64,000 bases of DNA from Vicinamibacteria bacterium. Its GTDB lineage: Bacteria > Acidobacteriota > Vicinamibacteria > Marinacidobacterales > Marinacidobacteraceae. The notes beneath the pieces are model-generated. The model was not told where the DNA came from and made no database searches. It saw only the letters and a list, made by a program, of their open reading frames with translations. Below, in pieces: positions 3,682 through 28,295 of the stretch. A program made the translations under genes and the position numbers. The stretch's first letter is position 1. Every line of letters begins with the position of its first letter. The DNA is taken from NCBI GenBank assembly GCA_964291235.2, contig OZ219816.1, positions 448,001-512,000 of the forward strand. The letters are read 5' to 3'.

Positions 3682-4074
3682 CCCGGATTTCTCATACTCA
3701 CGGCCCAAGGTGCCGCGCGGATCACGCCAACCTGTTGATGATGTCGGGAGGAACGGGCCAGGCGCGGACCCCAACCGCACGGACAGCGTGTAGGCACGGG
3801 AGCCCCCACCGGGAGAACTGGGCCGACCTCCAGGTCGGCACAGCGGCGCGGAGCGCCGCGGGCAGTTCCTCGCCGCTCGCGCTCACGGGGTCCCTCCGAG
3901 AGAGCGAGCCCATCCCGGCCCAGCCAAGTCCGCCCCGCCGCCCGCCTACGGCGGGCTGTGCCGGCCTGGAGGCCGGCGTTCCCGTGCCTGTCCGACATCA
4001 AGGCTGGTGGGGTTCCCGCCGAGAGGGGAACCATCCTGCATCGAGCTCTGCGGCGGAGGTATGAGAAATCCCGG
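3682..4074. mobile_element. MITE-like non-autonomous element (393 bp) with 16-bp TIRs and CTAG flanking direct repeats
   Basis: CTAG(3678-3681)|CCCGGATTTCTCATAC ... GTATGAGAAATCCCGG|CTAG(4075-4078); one TIR mismatch; no credible ORF. Confidence 0.8.
3792..3989. repeat. REP doublet nested inside the MITE
   Basis: GCCGACCTCCAGGTCGGCACAGC (3822-3844) vs GCTGTGCCGGCCTGGAGGCCGGC (3955-3977); outer arms AGGCACGGGA / TCCCGTGCCT. Confidence 0.75.
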
Positions 4075-12441: not shown

Positions 12442-13125
12442 ATGACCATCGCCCCCGAAGACCGTTTCACCTCCAGGCTCTGGGCCGGAATCGACGCGAC
12501 CTACGCGGAGATCCTCCGCCATCCCTTCCTCGACGGGCTCGCGGACGGAAGTCTCGACCGTCAGGTCTTCCGCTTCTACGTGATCGAGGACGCGCTCTAC
12601 CTCCACGAATTCGCCCGGGCGGTGGCCATCCTCGGCGGCAAGGCGCCGCATCCCGACATCACGGCGGCCCTGTGCGGCGACGCGGTGGCCACCGTCGAGG
12701 CCGAACGGGAGCAACTGGGGCAGTTCCTGACCGAGTTGGGAGGCTCCCGTGACGAACTCTTCGCCCGGCAGCCGGCACCCACGAACCGCGCCTATACCAG
12801 CTACTTCCTTTCCCAGGTCCATTCGCAGTCCTTCCACGAGGGGCTCGCCGCCGTCCTCCCGTGCTACTGGATCTACGCGGAAGTCGGGAAGGAGCTCCTC
12901 AAGCGTCCTTCCTCACCGGACCCGCTCTACCGCCGCTGGATCGAAAGCTACGGAAGCGAGGAGTACGACGCCGTGGTGCAGCGGGTCGTGCAGCTCACCG
13001 ACGACGTTGCCGAGGGGCTCGGGGACAGTGCCCGGCGGGCCATGGCGCGCCACTTCGCCATGAGTTCCCGCTATGAGTGGATGTTCTGGGACATGGCCTG
13101 GCGGCAGGAGGCCTGGCCTTTGTAG
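12442..13125 (+). CDS. tenA: Thiaminase II / aminopyrimidine aminohydrolase
   Basis: HPFL..L.DGSL, catalytic 'VLPCYWIY', Y..WI..Y and 'YEWMFWDMAW' motifs. Confidence 0.92.
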   Translation: MTIAPEDRFTSRLWAGIDATYAEILRHPFLDGLADGSLDRQVFRFYVIEDALYLHEFARAVAILGGKAPHPDITAALCGDAVATVEAEREQLGQFLTELGGSRDELFARQPAPTNRAYTSYFLSQVHSQSFHEGLAAVLPCYWIYAEVGKELLKRPSSPDPLYRRWIESYGSEEYDAVVQRVVQLTDDVAEGLGDSARRAMARHFAMSSRYEWMFWDMAWRQEAWPL

Positions 13126-13335
13126 CTTCCCGCGGAGGAAGCGCCCCCGGGAGTCAGCGAACGGCACCTCTGTGGCCGTTGGGTTACGAGGCGCTTCCTC
13201 CACGGGAAGGTGGCCGTGAATCGCTGCGCGATTCCGTCCACCCTCTTCTGCGGGGAGGGGAAACCCCTCCCCGCACCCCTCCCCCGCGCGGCGCTGCGCG
13301 CCGCGCGTTCAGCCCGGCGCAAGGTCTCCACAGCG
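13126..13335. repeat. Single diverged unit of the palindromic element family also found at rpsK
   Basis: Starts right after the tenA TAG; IR CTTCCCGCGGAGGAAGCGCC / GGCGCTTCCTCCACGGGAAG, then GCGGGGAGGGG-AAA-CCCCTCCCCGC and CGCGGCGC-TGC-GCGCCGCG hairpins; right end approximate. Confidence 0.75.
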
Positions 13336-13486
13336 AACTGCCCAACCGTGCCGAGAGCGACGCGGGAAGGGTCCACTCGTGCCTGGAAAGATGTCGCGGA
13401 GACACGGGAACGCCGGCCAGTTCTCTCGGTGGCGAGCACGGCGGTTGTGCTGCCGGCAGCCACGTGCCGACGTTCAGCGACCTCGC

Positions 13487-23771: not shown

Positions 23772-24125
23772 CTAGTCGACGAACTCGATGCGCGCCATCG
23801 GAGCGCCGTCGCCCCGGCGCGGCCCGAGCTTCAGGATCCGCGTGTAACCACCGGGGCGCTCGTGAAACCGCGGCGCCACTTCGCTGAAGAGATGGCGGAC
23901 CACCTGCTTCCGCGGGAGGATCTGAAGCGCGCGGCGCCTCGCCGCCAGATCAGACCGGCGTCCCAGGGTAACGAGCCTCTCGACGAACGGGCGCACCTCC
24001 TTGGCCTTGGCCACGGTGGTCCGCAAGTGTCCGTGTTCGATCAGGGTGGCGGCCAGATTCCTCAGCAGGGCCCGCCGGTGCGATGGCCGGCGACCGAGCT
24101 TGCGGTGTGCCATCTGGTGACGCAT
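23772..24125 (-). CDS. rplQ: 50S ribosomal protein L17
   Basis: MRH...RKLGR..SHR.ALLRNL; [10 protein letters not shown]. Confidence 0.98.
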
Positions 24126-24126
24126 T

Positions 24127-25074
24127 TCAGTTCTGTCCCATTCCCAGCTTCAGACCGAGACCTTCGAGAATCCGCTCCACTTCCTCGATGCTCTTGCGTC
24201 CGATGTTCCGCTCCCGCAGCAGTTCCGCGTCGGTCTTGACGACGAGGTCGCCGATCGTCGCTATGTCGGCGTTCCGCAGGCCGTTGTACGCCCGCACCGA
24301 GAGCTTGTCCGCATAGTCGTCGATGGAGGTGTTGCAATGCAGCTCGTAAGCCTTCTGCTCGTCGCTAATGACGACATCTTCCGTCGCTTCGCCTTCGCCG
24401 CCGACAAAGATCCCCAGCATCTCCCGCAGTAGCCGGGCCGCGGTGGCGACCGCTTCCTGGGGCCGGATCGAACCGTTGGTCTGCACGTCGATGACGAGCT
24501 TGTCGAGGTCCGTGTCCTGGCCGACGCGCGCCGGCTCAACCTTGTAGTTGACCTTGCGGACCGGCGAATGGGTCGAGTCGAGCGGGATGTAGCCAACCTC
24601 CAGGTCAGTGTCGCGGTTCCGCTCCGCCTGGATATAGCCACGACCGTTCTTGACCCGCATTTCGATGTCCAGCTCGGCCGCCTGGGTAATGGTTGCCAGG
24701 TGGACGTCGGGATCCAGAATTTCGACGTTGGGGTCGGTCTCGATGTCCCCCGACGTCAGAGAGCCTGTTTTTCTGCCCTTGAGCCGGATGGTCCTCGGCT
24801 GCGTCCCATGGACACGCAGAGGGATCCGCTTGATGTTCAGGATGATGTCCAGAGTGTCTTCCTTGACTCCCGGAATCGTCGACATTTCGTGCTGCACGCC
24901 GTCGAATTTGACCGCCGTGACCGCGGCGCCCTGAATGGAAGAGATCAACAGACGCCGCAGCGCATTGCCGATGGTGACTCCATAGCCCCGCTCAAAGGGG
25001 TGAGCAGAAAACCGACCGAAGTCGTCGCTGCTGGTTTCGATGTTGAGGCCGCTGGGCCTCCGAAGTTCTGACAT
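24127..25074 (-). CDS. rpoA: RNA polymerase subunit alpha
   Basis: [16 protein letters not shown] and [19 protein letters not shown] motifs; start at ATG 25074. Confidence 0.97.
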
Positions 25075-25108
25075 ATGCGCCGTCCCTATCCTTTCCTTTT
25101 CTTGCCCG

Positions 25109-25741
25109 TCAGCGCGAGTACAGCTCGACAATGAGCTGGTCGCGAATCTTTAGTTGGGGGTCTTCGCCGGAGGGGAGCGTGACAACCCTGCCCGACGCCA
25201 TGTCATCTGCCTCACGCTGAAGCCATTCGGGAACCGTCCGACTCTCAGCGCTCTCCATGATCTGTTTGAAGAAATCCTTCTTGCGCGTCTTGTCGCACAC
25301 CCGGATCACGTCACCTTCGTTGATGATGCTGGACGGAATGTCCACGCGCTTTCCGTTCACCTCGACGTGCCCGTGCCGGACAAAGAGCCGGGCCGAGGCG
25401 CGTGAGGAAGCGAGACCGAGTCGGTAAACCGTGTTGTCGAGCCGTCGCTCGAGCAGTTGGAGCAGGAATGTGCCGGTCACGGCCCGTTCACGCTCTGCAC
25501 GCTCGAAATAGAGGCGGAACTGACGCTCGAGCAAACCGTAGGCGCGCTTCGCCTTCTGCTTCTCGCGAAGCTGAAGTCCGTAGCCCTGAACACGACTGCG
25601 ACGTGTCTTGCCGTGGGCTCCGGGTGCGAAGTTGCGTTTGTCAATAGCGCACTTCGGGCTGAGGCAGCGGTCGCCCTTCAAAAAGAGCTTGGCCCCCTCC
25701 CGGCGACAGAGCCGGCAGACGGGACCGCGATATCTGGCCAA
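25109..25741 (-). CDS. rpsD: 30S ribosomal protein S4 (Zn-binding form)
   Basis: ARYRGPVCRLCRREG, QLREKQK, LERRLDN; TTG start with GGAGG RBS. Confidence 0.98.
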   Translation of the reverse strand: MARYRGPVCRLCRREGAKLFLKGDRCLSPKCAIDKRNFAPGAHGKTRRSRVQGYGLQLREKQKAKRAYGLLERQFRLYFERAERERAVTGTFLLQLLERRLDNTVYRLGLASSRASARLFVRHGHVEVNGKRVDIPSSIINEGDVIRVCDKTRKKDFFKQIMESAESRTVPEWLQREADDMASGRVVTLPSGEDPQLKIRDQLIVELYSR

Positions 25742-25750
25742 GATCTCCTC

Positions 25751-26701
25751 CTAACAGCCTGTGGACAACGCCTGGCTGCAATCGCTCGCGGCGCAAGGCG
25801 CCGCGAGGGTGGGGTGTGGGGAGGGGTTTCCCCTCCCCGCGAAAGTGGGGGGCGCGGAACGCGCCATCACCCCGTGGGGAAAGCGCCCCGCACGTACGAC
25901 GACCGCCAGGCTGGGCGTACGTGCCGTCCTGCGTCCGGTGCGGGGCGTTTTTTCCACGGGTTTCGCGGCGCACCGCGCCGCGGGGGTGGGGTGTGGGGAG
26001 GGGTTTCCCCTCCCCGCGAAAGTGGGGGGCGCGGAACGCGCCATCACCCCGTGGGGAAAGCGCCCCGCACGCACGACGACCGCCGGGCTGGGCGTACGTG
26101 CCGTCCGAGGTCCGGTGCGGGGCGTTTTTTCCCGGTCGCGGCGCACCGCGCCGCGTGTGGGGAGGGGTTTCCCCTCCCCACGAAAGAGGGGGGCGCGGAA
26201 CGCGCCATCACCCCGTGGGGAAAGCGCCCCGCACGCACGACGACCGCCGGGCTGGGCGTACGTGCCGTCCGAGGTCCGGTGCGGGGCGTTTTTCCACGGG
26301 TTGTTAATTCGCTTCTTGGGTGGCCGGCACCCGTTATGCGGAATCGGGGTGACATCCTTGATCGACCTCACCTCGATACCGGCAGCCGCTATGGCGCGGA
26401 TCGCGGCTTCGCGTCCGGCGCCAGGGCCCTTCACCTTGACGTCCACGTGGGTGCAGCCGCGCCCGCGGGCTTCGCGTGAGGCCGCACCGGCAGCCTGCTG
26501 CGCCGCGAACGGCGTCTGCTTCCTCGACCCCTTGAAGCCCTGCGATCCGGCGGTGGCCCAGCAGACCACGTTTCCGGCGGGGTCGGCGAACGTGATGATC
26601 GTGTTGTGGTACGTCGCCTGGATCGACACGACACCCGCGGTCAGCGTGCGCTTCTCGCGCTTCTTCCCGGTCCGGCGGCGCGCTGTCTTCTTCTTTGCCA
26701 T
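25751..26701 (-). CDS. rpsK: 30S ribosomal protein S11 (core 26306-26701, 132 aa), read through as sequenced into a 184-aa repeat-derived tail
   Basis: [41 protein letters not shown]; no in-frame stop until TAG at 25751-25753. Confidence 0.9.
25755..26303. mobile_element. 549-bp MITE-like element with TIRs and three tandem palindromic units
   Basis: Ends CTAA|CAGCCTGTGGACAACGCC ... GGCGTTTTTCCACGGGTTG|TTAA; units start at about 25786, 25963 and 26136; spacing of the GAGGGGTTTC core is 177 and 164 bp. Confidence 0.85.
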
Positions 26702-26724
26702 GTGGTGTTCCCTATCCCTTCAGC

Positions 26725-27090
26725 TCAGCGCCGGCGCATTCCGACACGACGAGGGCCGCGTCGGGTCCGGGAGTTCGTTTTCGTGCGTTGCCCCCGCGCG
26801 GGAAGTCCGCGACGGTGACGAAGCCCGCGATAACAGCCGATGTCCATAAGGCGCTTCAGGTCCATGGAAATCCGTTTCCTCAGATCTCCTTCGACGCCGC
26901 CTTCGTCGTCCATGACCCGGCCGATGCGGCTCACCTCTTCCTCGGTCAGATCGCTGACGCGCCGGTGGGGCTCGATCCCGGCCTTGCCCAGGATGGTCAC
27001 CGCCCGGTGCGAACCCACTCCGTAGATGTAGGTCAACCCGATGTCGATGCGCTTGGCGCGCGGCAGGTCAACGCCGGCAATTCTGGCCAT
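26725..27090 (-). CDS. rpsM: 30S ribosomal protein S13
   Basis: [38 protein letters not shown]. Confidence 0.98.
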
Positions 27091-27165
27091 CGGTCAGTCC
27101 CTCGCTGTTCCCATCGTCCGGCTCGGCCGGCAGGGAATTCCGTTCAGAGATGCGATCACGATCTG

Positions 27166-27279
27166 TCACCCCTGACGCTGCTTGTGTTTCGGGTTTTCGC
27201 AGATCACCCGCACCACTCCGCGGCGGCGGACAATCTTGCACTTGGCGCAGATGCGCCGAACCGAGGCGCGAACTTTCAT
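27166..27279 (-). CDS. rpmJ: 50S ribosomal protein L36 (missing from the ORF track)
   Basis: Manual translation [37 protein letters not shown]. Confidence 0.97.
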
Positions 27280-27289
27280 GTTGCCGCTC

Positions 27290-27511
27290 CTACTTGCACC
27301 GATAGACGATCCGGCCGCGGCTCAGATCGTAGGGAGAGAGCTCCACCAGGACGCGGTCTCCCGGCAGTACCTTGATAAAGCTCTTCCGCATCTTGCCCGA
27401 TACGTGGGCGAGCACCTTGTGGTCGCCGGTATCGAGCTTCACCCGGAACATGGCGTTGGGCAGAGGCTCCATAACGATGGCCTCCACAGAAATGGCGTCT
27501 TCCTTAGACAT
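27290..27511 (-). CDS. infA: Translation initiation factor IF-1
   Basis: [35 protein letters not shown]. Confidence 0.98.
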
Positions 27512-28295
27512 GATCTTCCTCGGACCCCGGGGTGCCGGGGTTCTGCTTTCTGGGCTCCGCCAGAATCCACGGCCCACCCTCCATAACGGCGATGGATCGT
27601 TCGAAGTGCGCCGACACGCTGCCGTCCGCAGTAACGACCGTCCACCGATCCCTCTTCACCCGAACGTCCGGGCTTCCGCGATTCACCATCGGCTCAATCG
27701 CGATCACCGCACCCGGTATCAAGCGGGTCCGCTTCCGTGGATCATAGAAGTTCGGAATCCAGGGCTCGGCGTGGAGACTCGTTCCGATCCCGTGCCCGCC
27801 GTACTCGCGCACCACGGAGTAACCGTGGCCCTCGGCATGCGCCTGCACCGCCTGCCCGATGTCCGAGATGCTGTTACCAGGACGCGCAGCCCCGATTCCC
27901 GCATACAGAGCCCCCTCGGTCACCTCAAGCAGTCGCGCCACCTCGTCGTCGATCTGGCCGACGGCGACGGTGGTGGCGTTGTCACCGTAGTACCCGTCAA
28001 CGATGCAGCCGAAATCGAGGCTCACGATGTCGCCCTCCTTCAGCTTTCGCCAACGGGACGGGATGCCGTGGACGACTTCGTCATTGACGGAAACGCACAG
28101 GGTCGCAGGAAAGCCCTGGTATCCCTTGAAGGCCGGCGGAACGCCGTGGCGCTTCAGGTTGTCGGCGGCGACCCGGTCAAGATGAGCCGTGGTCACCCCT
28201 GGCTCCACCGTGCGGGCGAGCAGGTCCAGAGTCTCCACGGTGATCGCGTTGGCCTGGTGGAGCTTGTCCAGCTCGGCGTCGGATCTGGAAATCAT
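27504..28295 (-). CDS. map: Methionine aminopeptidase type I
   Basis: [14 protein letters not shown]...DG..GD, GHGIG, AIEPM, SAHFE; ATGA overlap with adk. Confidence 0.97.

Follow-up and report, generated by a model that had tools for sequence, protein, structure and literature searches.

A tandemly tripled miniature inverted-repeat transposable element between rpsK and rpsD of a marine Vicinamibacteria bacterium, and an apparent S11 fusion very probably due to assembly

IS630-type insertion sequences (ISs) and Correia elements have CTAG or NTAN as their target and duplicate its TA, and Rickettsia palindromic elements lie in frame inside coding regions and are translated. The accessible part of one report describes IS5 copies flanked by CTAA or CTAG (PMC11677980). 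In Coxiella burnetii, again in the accessible part of the source, the miniature inverted-repeat transposable element (MITE) QMITE2 extends EnhC by 33 residues in one strain, and in another an indel places a stop immediately ahead of the insert (PMC5896051). Mycobacterial interspersed repetitive units (MIRUs) are described, in the portion of the source that was available, as carrying an internal open reading frame (ORF) that couples to the next gene (PMC12548453). Here we analyzed a 64,000-nt stretch of a Vicinamibacteria genome (the window; contig OZ219816.1 of GCA_964291235.2, positions 448,001 to 512,000), in which a 550-bp insert separates rpsK, encoding ribosomal protein S11, from rpsD, encoding S4. 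The insert is a tandemly tripled MITE, the noncoding and hairpin-rich remnant of a cut-and-paste transposon, and its features are all those of a MITE, apart from an identified partner. We assign a probability of about 0.7 to the account as a whole, in which the MITE entered a CTAG and left S11 intact, the S11 fusion in the assembly is an error, and an old insertion was inherited vertically, with later losses and amplifications.

The minus-strand gene order in the window was rpsM, rpsK, the insert, rpsD, rpoA and rplQ. As assembled, the rpsK ORF (25751..26701, minus strand) ran from a start at 26701 to a TAG at 25753-25751 and encoded 316 aa, in which the conserved S11 part was followed by I-N-N-P-W-K and a tail read via the insert. 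S11 residues 22-131 were 92-97% identical by tblastn to the 13 same-genus loci with an S11 match. Tandem Repeats Finder (TRF) reported 3.0 copies in the insert (period 177/164, 91% matches), and a repeat search found three tandem copies of 170 nt with identities of 100, 95 and 84%. Each unit held a 23-nt inverted repeat with 44 nt between its arms, a hairpin GGGGAGGGG-TTT-CCCCTCCCC and a hairpin CGCGGCGC-nnn-GCGCCGCG. The termini of the insert, CAACCCGTGG... and ...CCACAGGCTG, were terminal inverted repeats (TIRs), with the right end reading CAGCCTGTGGACAACGCC on the plus strand at 25755-25772, and the distal TAG adjoined GAGGAGATC-TTG of rpsD. For a 574-nt stretch the folding z-score was -8.4 (gene strand) and -9.1 (opposite strand), and on neither strand did any of 100 shuffles fold as well; this structure is not due to chance. 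An earlier reading of this DNA from its letters alone (the sequence-only reading) had described the 316-aa ORF, three units, TIRs, TTAA and TTAG flanks and hairpins, all of which were found in the assembled window. It had also placed the units in two reading frames, which agrees with the periods of 164 and 177 that set unit 1 apart from units 2 and 3, and had the distal TAG of the ORF abutting the rpsD ribosome-binding site, as it does. The features of the locus were:

26309..26701, minus strand: conserved part of rpsK (S11), residues 1-131 as assembled, from the ORF translation
26288..26308, no strand: junction mis-assembled according to the read contigs of runs X1, X2 and X3
26304..26307, minus strand: proximal flank TTAA (TTAG by the reads), with the true S11 stop at 26306-26304
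26285..26303, minus strand: left TIR CAACCCGTGGAAAAACGCC, which doubles as the 5' arm of hairpin A in unit 1
26136..26303, minus strand: unit 1, modules A-B-C-D, 168 nt as assembled
25963..26135, minus strand: unit 2, modules A-B-C-D, 173 nt
25786..25962, minus strand: unit 3, modules A-B-C-D
25755..25785, minus strand: right terminal segment with the right TIR (...GCAGCCAGGCGTTGTCCACAGGCTG), single, at the distal end of the array
25751..25754, minus strand: distal flank TTAG, whose TAG (25753-25751) ends the 316-aa ORF (very probably artefactual) and overlaps the rpsD ribosome-binding site
25739..25752, minus strand: rpsD ribosome-binding site AGGAGG (25752-25747) and TTG start (25741-25739)
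25109..25741, minus strand: rpsD (S4), 210 aa, 93-95% identical to same-genus relatives

Contigs of four public runs were placed on positions 25400-26750, and three of the runs (X1, X2 and X3) contained a fraction of 0.81-0.83 of the words sampled. A 2254-nt contig in each of X1, X2 and X3 covered 26274-26750 (depth 43.2, 11.5 and 16.1, respectively) and differed from the window at exactly three places: an additional TCCG behind 26308, C for T at 26304, and an additional T behind 26288 (plus strand). At all three places the depth with the difference equaled the total depth in X1, X2 and X3, and the window's version of the junction was absent among the contigs listed for these runs. The corrected gene strand reads AAG AAG CGA CGG AAT TAG CAACCCGTGGAAAAAACGCC, by which S11 ends in KKRRN followed by the stop. 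The junction form expected under an assembly artefact was CGACGGAATTAG; the window has CGAATTAA where relatives read CGCCGGAAYTAR, and this is the 4-nt deletion. After correction, the S11 frame is by arithmetic out of phase with the distal TAG (554 nt). A 2236-nt contig of X1-X3 covered 25400-25836 without differences, which confirmed the distal junction, and the junction of units 2 and 3 (25933-26002) was matched by a 70-nt contig without differences in all three runs.

The 316-aa ORF is present in the assembly but, by the reads, not in the dominant DNA, and the error lies at the edge of the repeat, where four nucleotides are deleted, one is substituted and a homopolymer has lost one base. 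We consider it very probable that the 184 additional residues of S11 are an assembly artefact. Whether or not the assembly was made from these runs, they contradict it here rather than echo it. The sequence-only reading had named a sequencing deletion beside a purely intergenic array as one of two possibilities. That proposal stands in substance, as contigs of three runs bring a TAG stop into frame over the positions it had singled out for a read check (26300-26312) and so remove the fusion, but it erred in detail, since the error is the 4-nt deletion with a substitution and a missing homopolymer A and not a 1-nt deletion. A joint in X2 from 25991 to 26157 (skipping 165, with GG between) looks cross-mapped from a paralog with CCCCACCCCCCACCCCC, e.g. 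C1:693324, and was not used. X1 also held a 218-nt contig of depth 4 that joined 25753 to 26316 with the empty-site sequence and 17 other differences, so that a related strain or species without the element is present in the same run.

S4 was searched in 31 related genomes, and the junction was extracted where both rpsD and rpsK matched; G003 and G027 (no S11 match) and G015 (no S4 match) were left out. Comparison of this junction in relatives, as the sequence-only reading had proposed, yielded both empty sites and differing unit numbers. Besides the window's own locus, 7 of 13 same-genus loci had the empty site ...CGC CGG AAC TAG GAGGA(C/G)ATC TTG, and 6 carried the element exactly at the junction, five with one unit and G002 with two. 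S11 ended in KKRRN and then immediately TAG, TAA or TGA in all 13 loci; the proximal flanks of the six filled relatives were TTAG, CTAA, CTAA, CTGA, TTAG and TTAA, each an in-frame stop. The stop-to-TAG distances in the one-unit orthologs were 243, 222, 225, 225 and 222 nt. The right terminal segment was common to all rpsK-site orthologs, and TAGGAGGA(C/G)ATCTTG stood in empty and filled sites of the genus alike. The contig of G003 starts inside the element at the same site (distal part, contig end), and the tally at the rpsK-rpsD site was 8 of 15 genus genomes with the element and 7 of 15 with a clean empty site. Three other genera of the family (G016-G018) were empty, as were two additional public records, L161 and L163 (L164 is the same stretch as the G016 locus), and order-level relatives had ordinary spacers and an S11 ending in KRRRV. 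Short-read assemblies break or degrade at the element: the G003 contig (L028:1-100) begins with a G-rich low-complexity stretch, and the second unit of G002 (L030 junction) has C runs of more than 20 bases. Because assemblies break at the element, copy counts in fragmented genomes are underestimates.

The element belongs to a large family. A profile of the five one-unit orthologs gave, by nhmmer, 20 strong matches in 15 loci of the window's genome (G000, 3.45 Mb). By BLAST, conducted within the genus and with the best 40 candidates scored per genome, the family was found in 16 of 16 genus genomes, with at least 1 to 50 matches each and up to 48-50 in contiguous assemblies. The family TIR is CAGCCYGTGGyrAAAC (15-17 bp). 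Copies in G013 had a 15-bp TIR, CAGCCTGTGGTGAAA / TTTCACCACAGGCTG, with Y-TA-R on both sides, and in G000 the same TIR bounded a larger set of MITEs whose bodies are unrelated, with 36 TIR pairs of 113-323 bp, many with perfect CTAG..CTAG or TTAA..TTAA flanks. One-unit copies measured 218-239 bp. Together these form a MITE superfamily. The family resembles MITEs of the IS630/Tc1-mariner type, such as the Neisseria Correia elements, in being small, noncoding and multi-copy, in its 15-17-bp TIRs and Y-TA-R target, and in its frequent location in operons; it differs from those MITEs in that the body consists of four hairpin modules in series rather than one long TIR-to-TIR palindrome. A literature search under the name 'Marinacidobacterium' found no papers.

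Further copies and modules were observed in the window and in G000. A second, short family copy with A-D modules lies in the window at 13123..13299 on the plus strand (nhmmer E = 9e-19; G000:C2:461123-461299) and begins at the TAG stop of an upstream co-oriented ORF (~12442-13125). A second MITE type of about 179 bp in G000 has the same TIR and an unrelated body (e.g. C1:124772-124950 and C2:652138-652316). An 825-bp mosaic array (G000:C1:954469-955293) has its start at the TAG that ends an upstream ORF and comprises one full A-B-C-D unit followed by three in which another segment replaces A and B and the C and D hairpins are retained. At G000:C1:77513-77627 the flanking stop is mutated (AAG) and the upstream ORF ends four codons on, at a TAG that arose within the TIR (CCCGTAG), a natural case of a short tail encoded by a MITE. 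The window also has, at two places, a hyper-iterated motif about 18 nt long, CCCCCACCGGGAGAACTGG, at ~3806-3821 (plus strand) and 13417-13432 (minus strand, 1 mismatch). It had 133 copies in G000 at no more than one mismatch on both strands, compared to 0 for a reversed control, and 9 of the 133 sites were spanned by a long frame with high GC content at third codon positions (GC3). The motif is the 18-nt length module of the MITEs (179, 197, 215, 233, 251 and 269 bp), and in G008 and G002 it lies within hairpin B of the copies at the rpsK site. Of 16 other genomes in the taxonomic family of the window, 13 had the exact 17-mer, with 536 copies in G008 and 221 in G018, compared to 0 of 24 genomes in the two sister families.

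For comparisons among copies, we combined those of G000 with the 30 loci that matched best in each of G013, G004 and G008; 15 of 108 non-redundant matches lacked a left end and were dropped, leaving 93 copies. In a tree of these copies, the 10 rpsK-site units formed one clade (support 100/99), and their clustering required one change on the tree, a value as low as which was found in 0 of 500 shuffles. Inside this clade the order follows the species tree, with the three G000 units together and the two G002 units together. In a tree of rpsD-rpoA-rplQ (2.1 kb), carriers occupied the deepest genus branches (G000, G008, G002, G006, and a group with G009, G010, G003 and G011), and empty sites fell in four places (the clade of G004, G001 and G013; G005; G007; and G012 with G014). 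The element was probably inserted once, in the ancestor of the genus, and inherited vertically, and has since been lost precisely in at least four cases; tandem amplification on two independent occasions probably gave the three units of G000 and the two of G002. Unit junctions read ...GCGCCGCGA followed by (A)ACCCGTGG..., which suggests duplication at a short AAC-type microhomology; tandem growth may thus have been microhomology-mediated, and precise loss may have occurred by slippage between short flanking repeats of the hairpin-forming insert.

Y-TA-R stood on both sides of the element, and the matching empty site AAC TAG GAGG was present in seven same-genus genomes. The target duplication was counted in 54 copies, of which 16 lacked TA on both sides and were dropped. 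Among the 38 usable copies, 13 fitted only a duplication of TA, with a TIR longer by one nucleotide, 5 fitted only a 4-bp duplication, 15 were palindromic and uninformative, and 5 fitted neither. These flank counts do not decide between a TA duplication, as in IS630, and a 4-bp duplication, as in IS5. The 13 copies that fit TA plus one TIR base, against 5 that fit 4 bp, are a likeness to IS630-type elements, as is the occurrence in the same genus of IS630-type ISs that use CTAG with a TA duplication. IS5 and IS5-derived MITEs share the YTAR target class, and identical 4-mers stood on both sides in 15 palindromic and 5 non-palindromic copies; unlike IS5, however, 13 copies need extra mutations for a 4-bp duplication. 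The IS630-type (DDE_3) ISs of about 1.1-1.2 kb were observed in G001, G008, G004 and G013 (L244, L249, L250, L253, L237, L243 and L254), where they lie in CTAG or CTAA at MITE ends or inside the 179-bp MITE with a TA duplication. They have at least three distinct TIR types, all differing from the TIR of the MITE.

The CTAG of the empty site is composed of the C of an Asn codon and the TAG stop of rpsK, and its TAG is the start of TAGGAGG, the Shine-Dalgarno (SD) sequence of rpsD. In the filled site the proximal flank is AAY-TAR (TGA in G002) and the distal flank is Y-TAG-GAGG. The element entered the CTAG that joins the rpsK stop to the rpsD SD sequence, and the target duplication, probably together with the terminal purine of the element, rebuilt a stop proximally and TAGGAGG distally, leaving both genes intact. 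Under a TA duplication the terminal purine would complete TAA or TAG, so that a stop would be rebuilt wherever the element enters behind the TA of TAG or TAA. The array would then be transcribed within the operon mRNA and rpsD translated from its own rebuilt ribosome-binding site, the element being a tolerated passenger that presumably has no dedicated role. The proximal stop has drifted among TAG, TAA and TGA and has always remained a stop.

The position at a stop codon mostly follows from the Y-TA-R target. G000 contains 1867 YTAR sites in 3.45 Mb at 68% GC, by arithmetic about 12-fold below the expectation from base composition, and 500 of these (27%) are the stop of a long high-GC3 ORF, gene calls in all stop and ORF counts being a crude proxy of long open frames with high GC3. 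MITE ends adjoin 157 of the 1867 sites. By the same proxy, a stop of a long high-GC3 ORF lay in the left flank of 40 of the 93 copies at GC3 >= 0.75 (49 at 0.70 and 31 at 0.80), and 16 of 36 other TIR-pair MITEs in G000 had a gene stop in one flank or the other. Target choice and the loss of intragenic insertions explain most of the association with stops.

The element itself is unlikely to be translated as a relay ORF. In the five one-unit orthologs the S11 frame was open to the distal TAG, with a GTG 6 nt after the stop, but open frames are expected at 68% GC, and in paralogs the second frame was open at least as often (38 vs 32 of 47). Master lengths (element plus duplication) are multiples of 3, namely 225 and 183 + 18k, and among paralogs off the master length 7 of 20 were multiples of 3, which is the chance level. 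The frame is interrupted in G002, and the corrected G000 array is out of phase. Variable columns among the five orthologs were distributed 15/20/19 over the codon positions, revealing no codon periodicity and bearing out the earlier statement that the tail peptide is not under selection. As in Rickettsia palindromic elements, palindromic repeats are associated with conserved genes and the master lengths are multiples of 3; unlike those elements, the rpsK copy follows the stop, and 0 of 36 TIR-pair copies in G000 were spanned by an ORF. The likeness to Rickettsia palindromic elements that the sequence-only reading had drawn does not hold for the true sequence, in which, by the reads and six orthologs, the insert is outside the coding frame.

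Among seven orthologous units, divergence of the element was 0.08-0.16, compared to 0.09-0.43 at four-fold sites of the adjacent rpsD. By part of the element, divergence among orthologs was:

Hairpin A arms: 0.07 and 0.03
Hairpin D: 0.03
A loop: 0.25
B region: 0.21
Left TIR with flank: 0.29

The stems are maintained across the family. Over the 93 copies, double-sided Watson-Crick changes were found in 8 of 23 pairs of stem A and 7 of 12 of stem B, counted on consensus-defined stems, which favors that structure, as RNAalifold missed obvious stems of the gene strand; when the partner was shifted as a control, such changes numbered 3-4 in the 23 pairs of stem A and 2-5 in the 12 of stem B, and paired cells were far fewer. 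Double-sided changes were absent from the 10 orthologous units. In 15 cross-genome pairs at other loci the arms diverged by 0.05-0.06 and the loop by 0.18, the same contrast between stem and loop, which indicates a property of the family and not one specific to rpsK-rpsD. Non-Watson-Crick pairs on the gene strand were A.C in 272 cases and G.U in 53, a count driven by a few shared positions, and the opposite strand folded more stably in 86 of 93 copies, by a mean of 11.6 kcal/mol. This strand asymmetry may go back to the founder sequence, may come from folding of the opposite strand, or may result from selection against excessively stable structure in the mRNA. A closing stem, in which pairing of the left and right TIRs would bring the stop to the SD sequence, was considered and rejected; mismatches accumulate in it (left TIR 0.29) without compensation.

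Transcription signals were also examined. A scan limited to sigma-70-like promoters found none in 25600-26500, and the two terminator-like sites in this interval (shuffles averaged 0.9) were both opposite to the operon strand. Of the 93 copies, 23 lay between co-oriented ORFs, which argues that the element does not stop transcription. A cmscan of 24000-28000 against Rfam 15 at E <= 1 left the element without a match; its single row, a weak one at 27936-27975, lies outside the element and scored 20 bits against a gathering score of 70.

Several observations weigh against the account given here. The TIR of the MITE was found in 0 of 12 DDE_Tnp_1 loci and 0 of 20 DDE_3 loci sampled from relatives, so that no autonomous partner was seen there, and G000 had no match to either DDE_Tnp_1 or DDE_3, in which the family is unlike both IS5 and IS630-type elements. 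TIR pairs in G000, G008 and G013 were all less than about 710 bp apart or were chance pairings of neighboring copies. With regard to the reads, k-mer contigs drop rare variants, and a minority haplotype with the 4-nt deletion would escape them; the runs and the assembly may also come from different strains. The number of three units rests on the assembly and one confirmed unit-unit junction, as no contig spans the array and the junction of units 1 and 2 was not bridged among the contig pieces listed. Three results hint at some constraint on the element: the stop-to-TAG distance is a multiple of 3 in all five single-unit orthologs; the arms of hairpins A and D are slow (0.03-0.07, compared to 0.25 in the A loop, 0.29 in the left TIR and 0.09-0.43 at rpsD four-fold sites); and full copies beside stops had the left end there in 19 cases and the right end in 6 (binomial p ~0.015, with related copies counted repeatedly).

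The last two points also bear on the possibility that the element has been co-opted as an intercistronic RNA module of the alpha operon, with S11 ending normally. Hairpins 7-8 nt past the S11 stop may protect the rpsM-rpsK message, create a processing site or slow termination, and any such effect would set the S11:S4 ratio once the tight overlap of stop and SD sequence was broken. Of 15 genus genomes, 8 still have the element after what was apparently one old insertion, and arms A and D evolve 4-9 times more slowly than the A loop, the left TIR and four-fold sites. The left TIR, which is needed for mobility, has decayed at 0.29, and the covariation in stems A and B and the orientation bias beside stops also fit such a role, although the counts include related, non-independent copies. 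On the other hand, seven genus genomes lack the element, no double-sided change has arisen among the orthologous units, and the contrast between stem and loop recurs at other loci and could also be caused by hairpin-templated repair. The better folding of the opposite strand and the excess of A.C over G.U run the wrong way for selection on the mRNA. We consider co-option unlikely, at rather less than one chance in four, and slightly more doubtful still its particular form in which the hairpins, as structured RNA, replace the overlap of stop and SD sequence by pacing ribosomes before the 23-bp stem or shielding the message, with the number of units tuning S11:S4.

It is highly unlikely that the frameshift is real in the assembled strain and that S11 there has 316 aa with a MITE-derived C-terminal extension. 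The frame is open in the window, contigs drop rare variants, and there is a printed precedent in QMITE2 at enhC of Coxiella (PMC5896051), the closest printed parallel to the S11 read-through. In the accessible part of that report, as here, a MITE adjoins a gene end, and it depends on an indel whether the protein acquires a MITE-encoded tail or stops before the element; in Coxiella both states come from real strains, whereas in the window the reads contradict the extended one, and the gene concerned encodes an essential ribosomal protein. The sole contig over the site in each of three runs has the extra four bases and the TAG at full depth. Three differences clustered within 21 nt at the edge of a repeat, one of them a homopolymer length, are the pattern of a consensus error, S11 ends at this point in 13 of 13 same-genus loci and in other genera, and the tail has no codon periodicity, with the corrected frame out of phase. 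The real capture that keeps ribosomes moving through the hairpins, the other possibility raised by the sequence-only reading, accordingly has no support from the contigs of X1-X3, which give KKRRN and a stop, or from the fully readable orthologous copies, 6 of 6 of which follow an in-frame stop.

The units resemble repetitive extragenic palindromic (REP) sequences, bacterial interspersed mosaic elements (BIMEs) and MIRUs in forming mosaic or tandem short repeats between cistrons, with REP-like hairpins close behind stops, and differ from them in their TIRs, target duplication and empty sites and in that there is no evidence for a conserved relay ORF. That they are REP/BIME palindromes spread by a REP-associated tyrosine transposase (RAYT, Y1), or MIRU-like relay ORFs leading from rpsK to rpsD, is extremely improbable, for although hairpin modules occur in varied mosaic combinations and tandem arrays (e.g. 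C1:954469-955293), G000 has one Y1_Tnp-like gene, the S11 frame reaches the distal TAG unbroken in all five one-unit orthologs, which have the GTG 6 nt past the stop, and MIRUs are described in the accessible text as inserting with an internal ORF coupled to the neighboring gene (PMC12548453), the TIRs, target duplications and empty sites are clear, inverted arrays of another repeat (about 120 nt) stand on either side of the Y1_Tnp gene, open frames are expected at this GC content and at least as common in a second frame of paralogs, paralog lengths are at chance, codon periodicity is lacking, and G002 and the corrected G000 do not fit. The single Y1_Tnp (RAYT-like) match in G000, at 33 bits, lies in L257 (G000:C1:15098-18334), where inverted arrays of the ~120-nt repeat at 637-1033 and 1928-2486 carry a CCCCGC-GAAG-CGGGG hairpin; this locus has the classic REP-RAYT layout.

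The position of the insertion in the window is remarkable but explicable, and the insert is real, old and tandemly amplified. The analysis removes a false 316-aa S11 and shows that a repeat edge in a long-read metagenome assembly can mimic a fusion in an essential gene. A MITE family of marine Vicinamibacteria-type Acidobacteriota is described that, through its Y-TA-R target, lands on stop codons and rebuilds them, with the result that about 4 in 10 copies adjoin the end of a gene. The rpsK-rpsD site provides a natural series of zero, one, two and three units at an essential and normally tightly coupled junction, which could be used to test the effects of hairpins on coupling and message stability.

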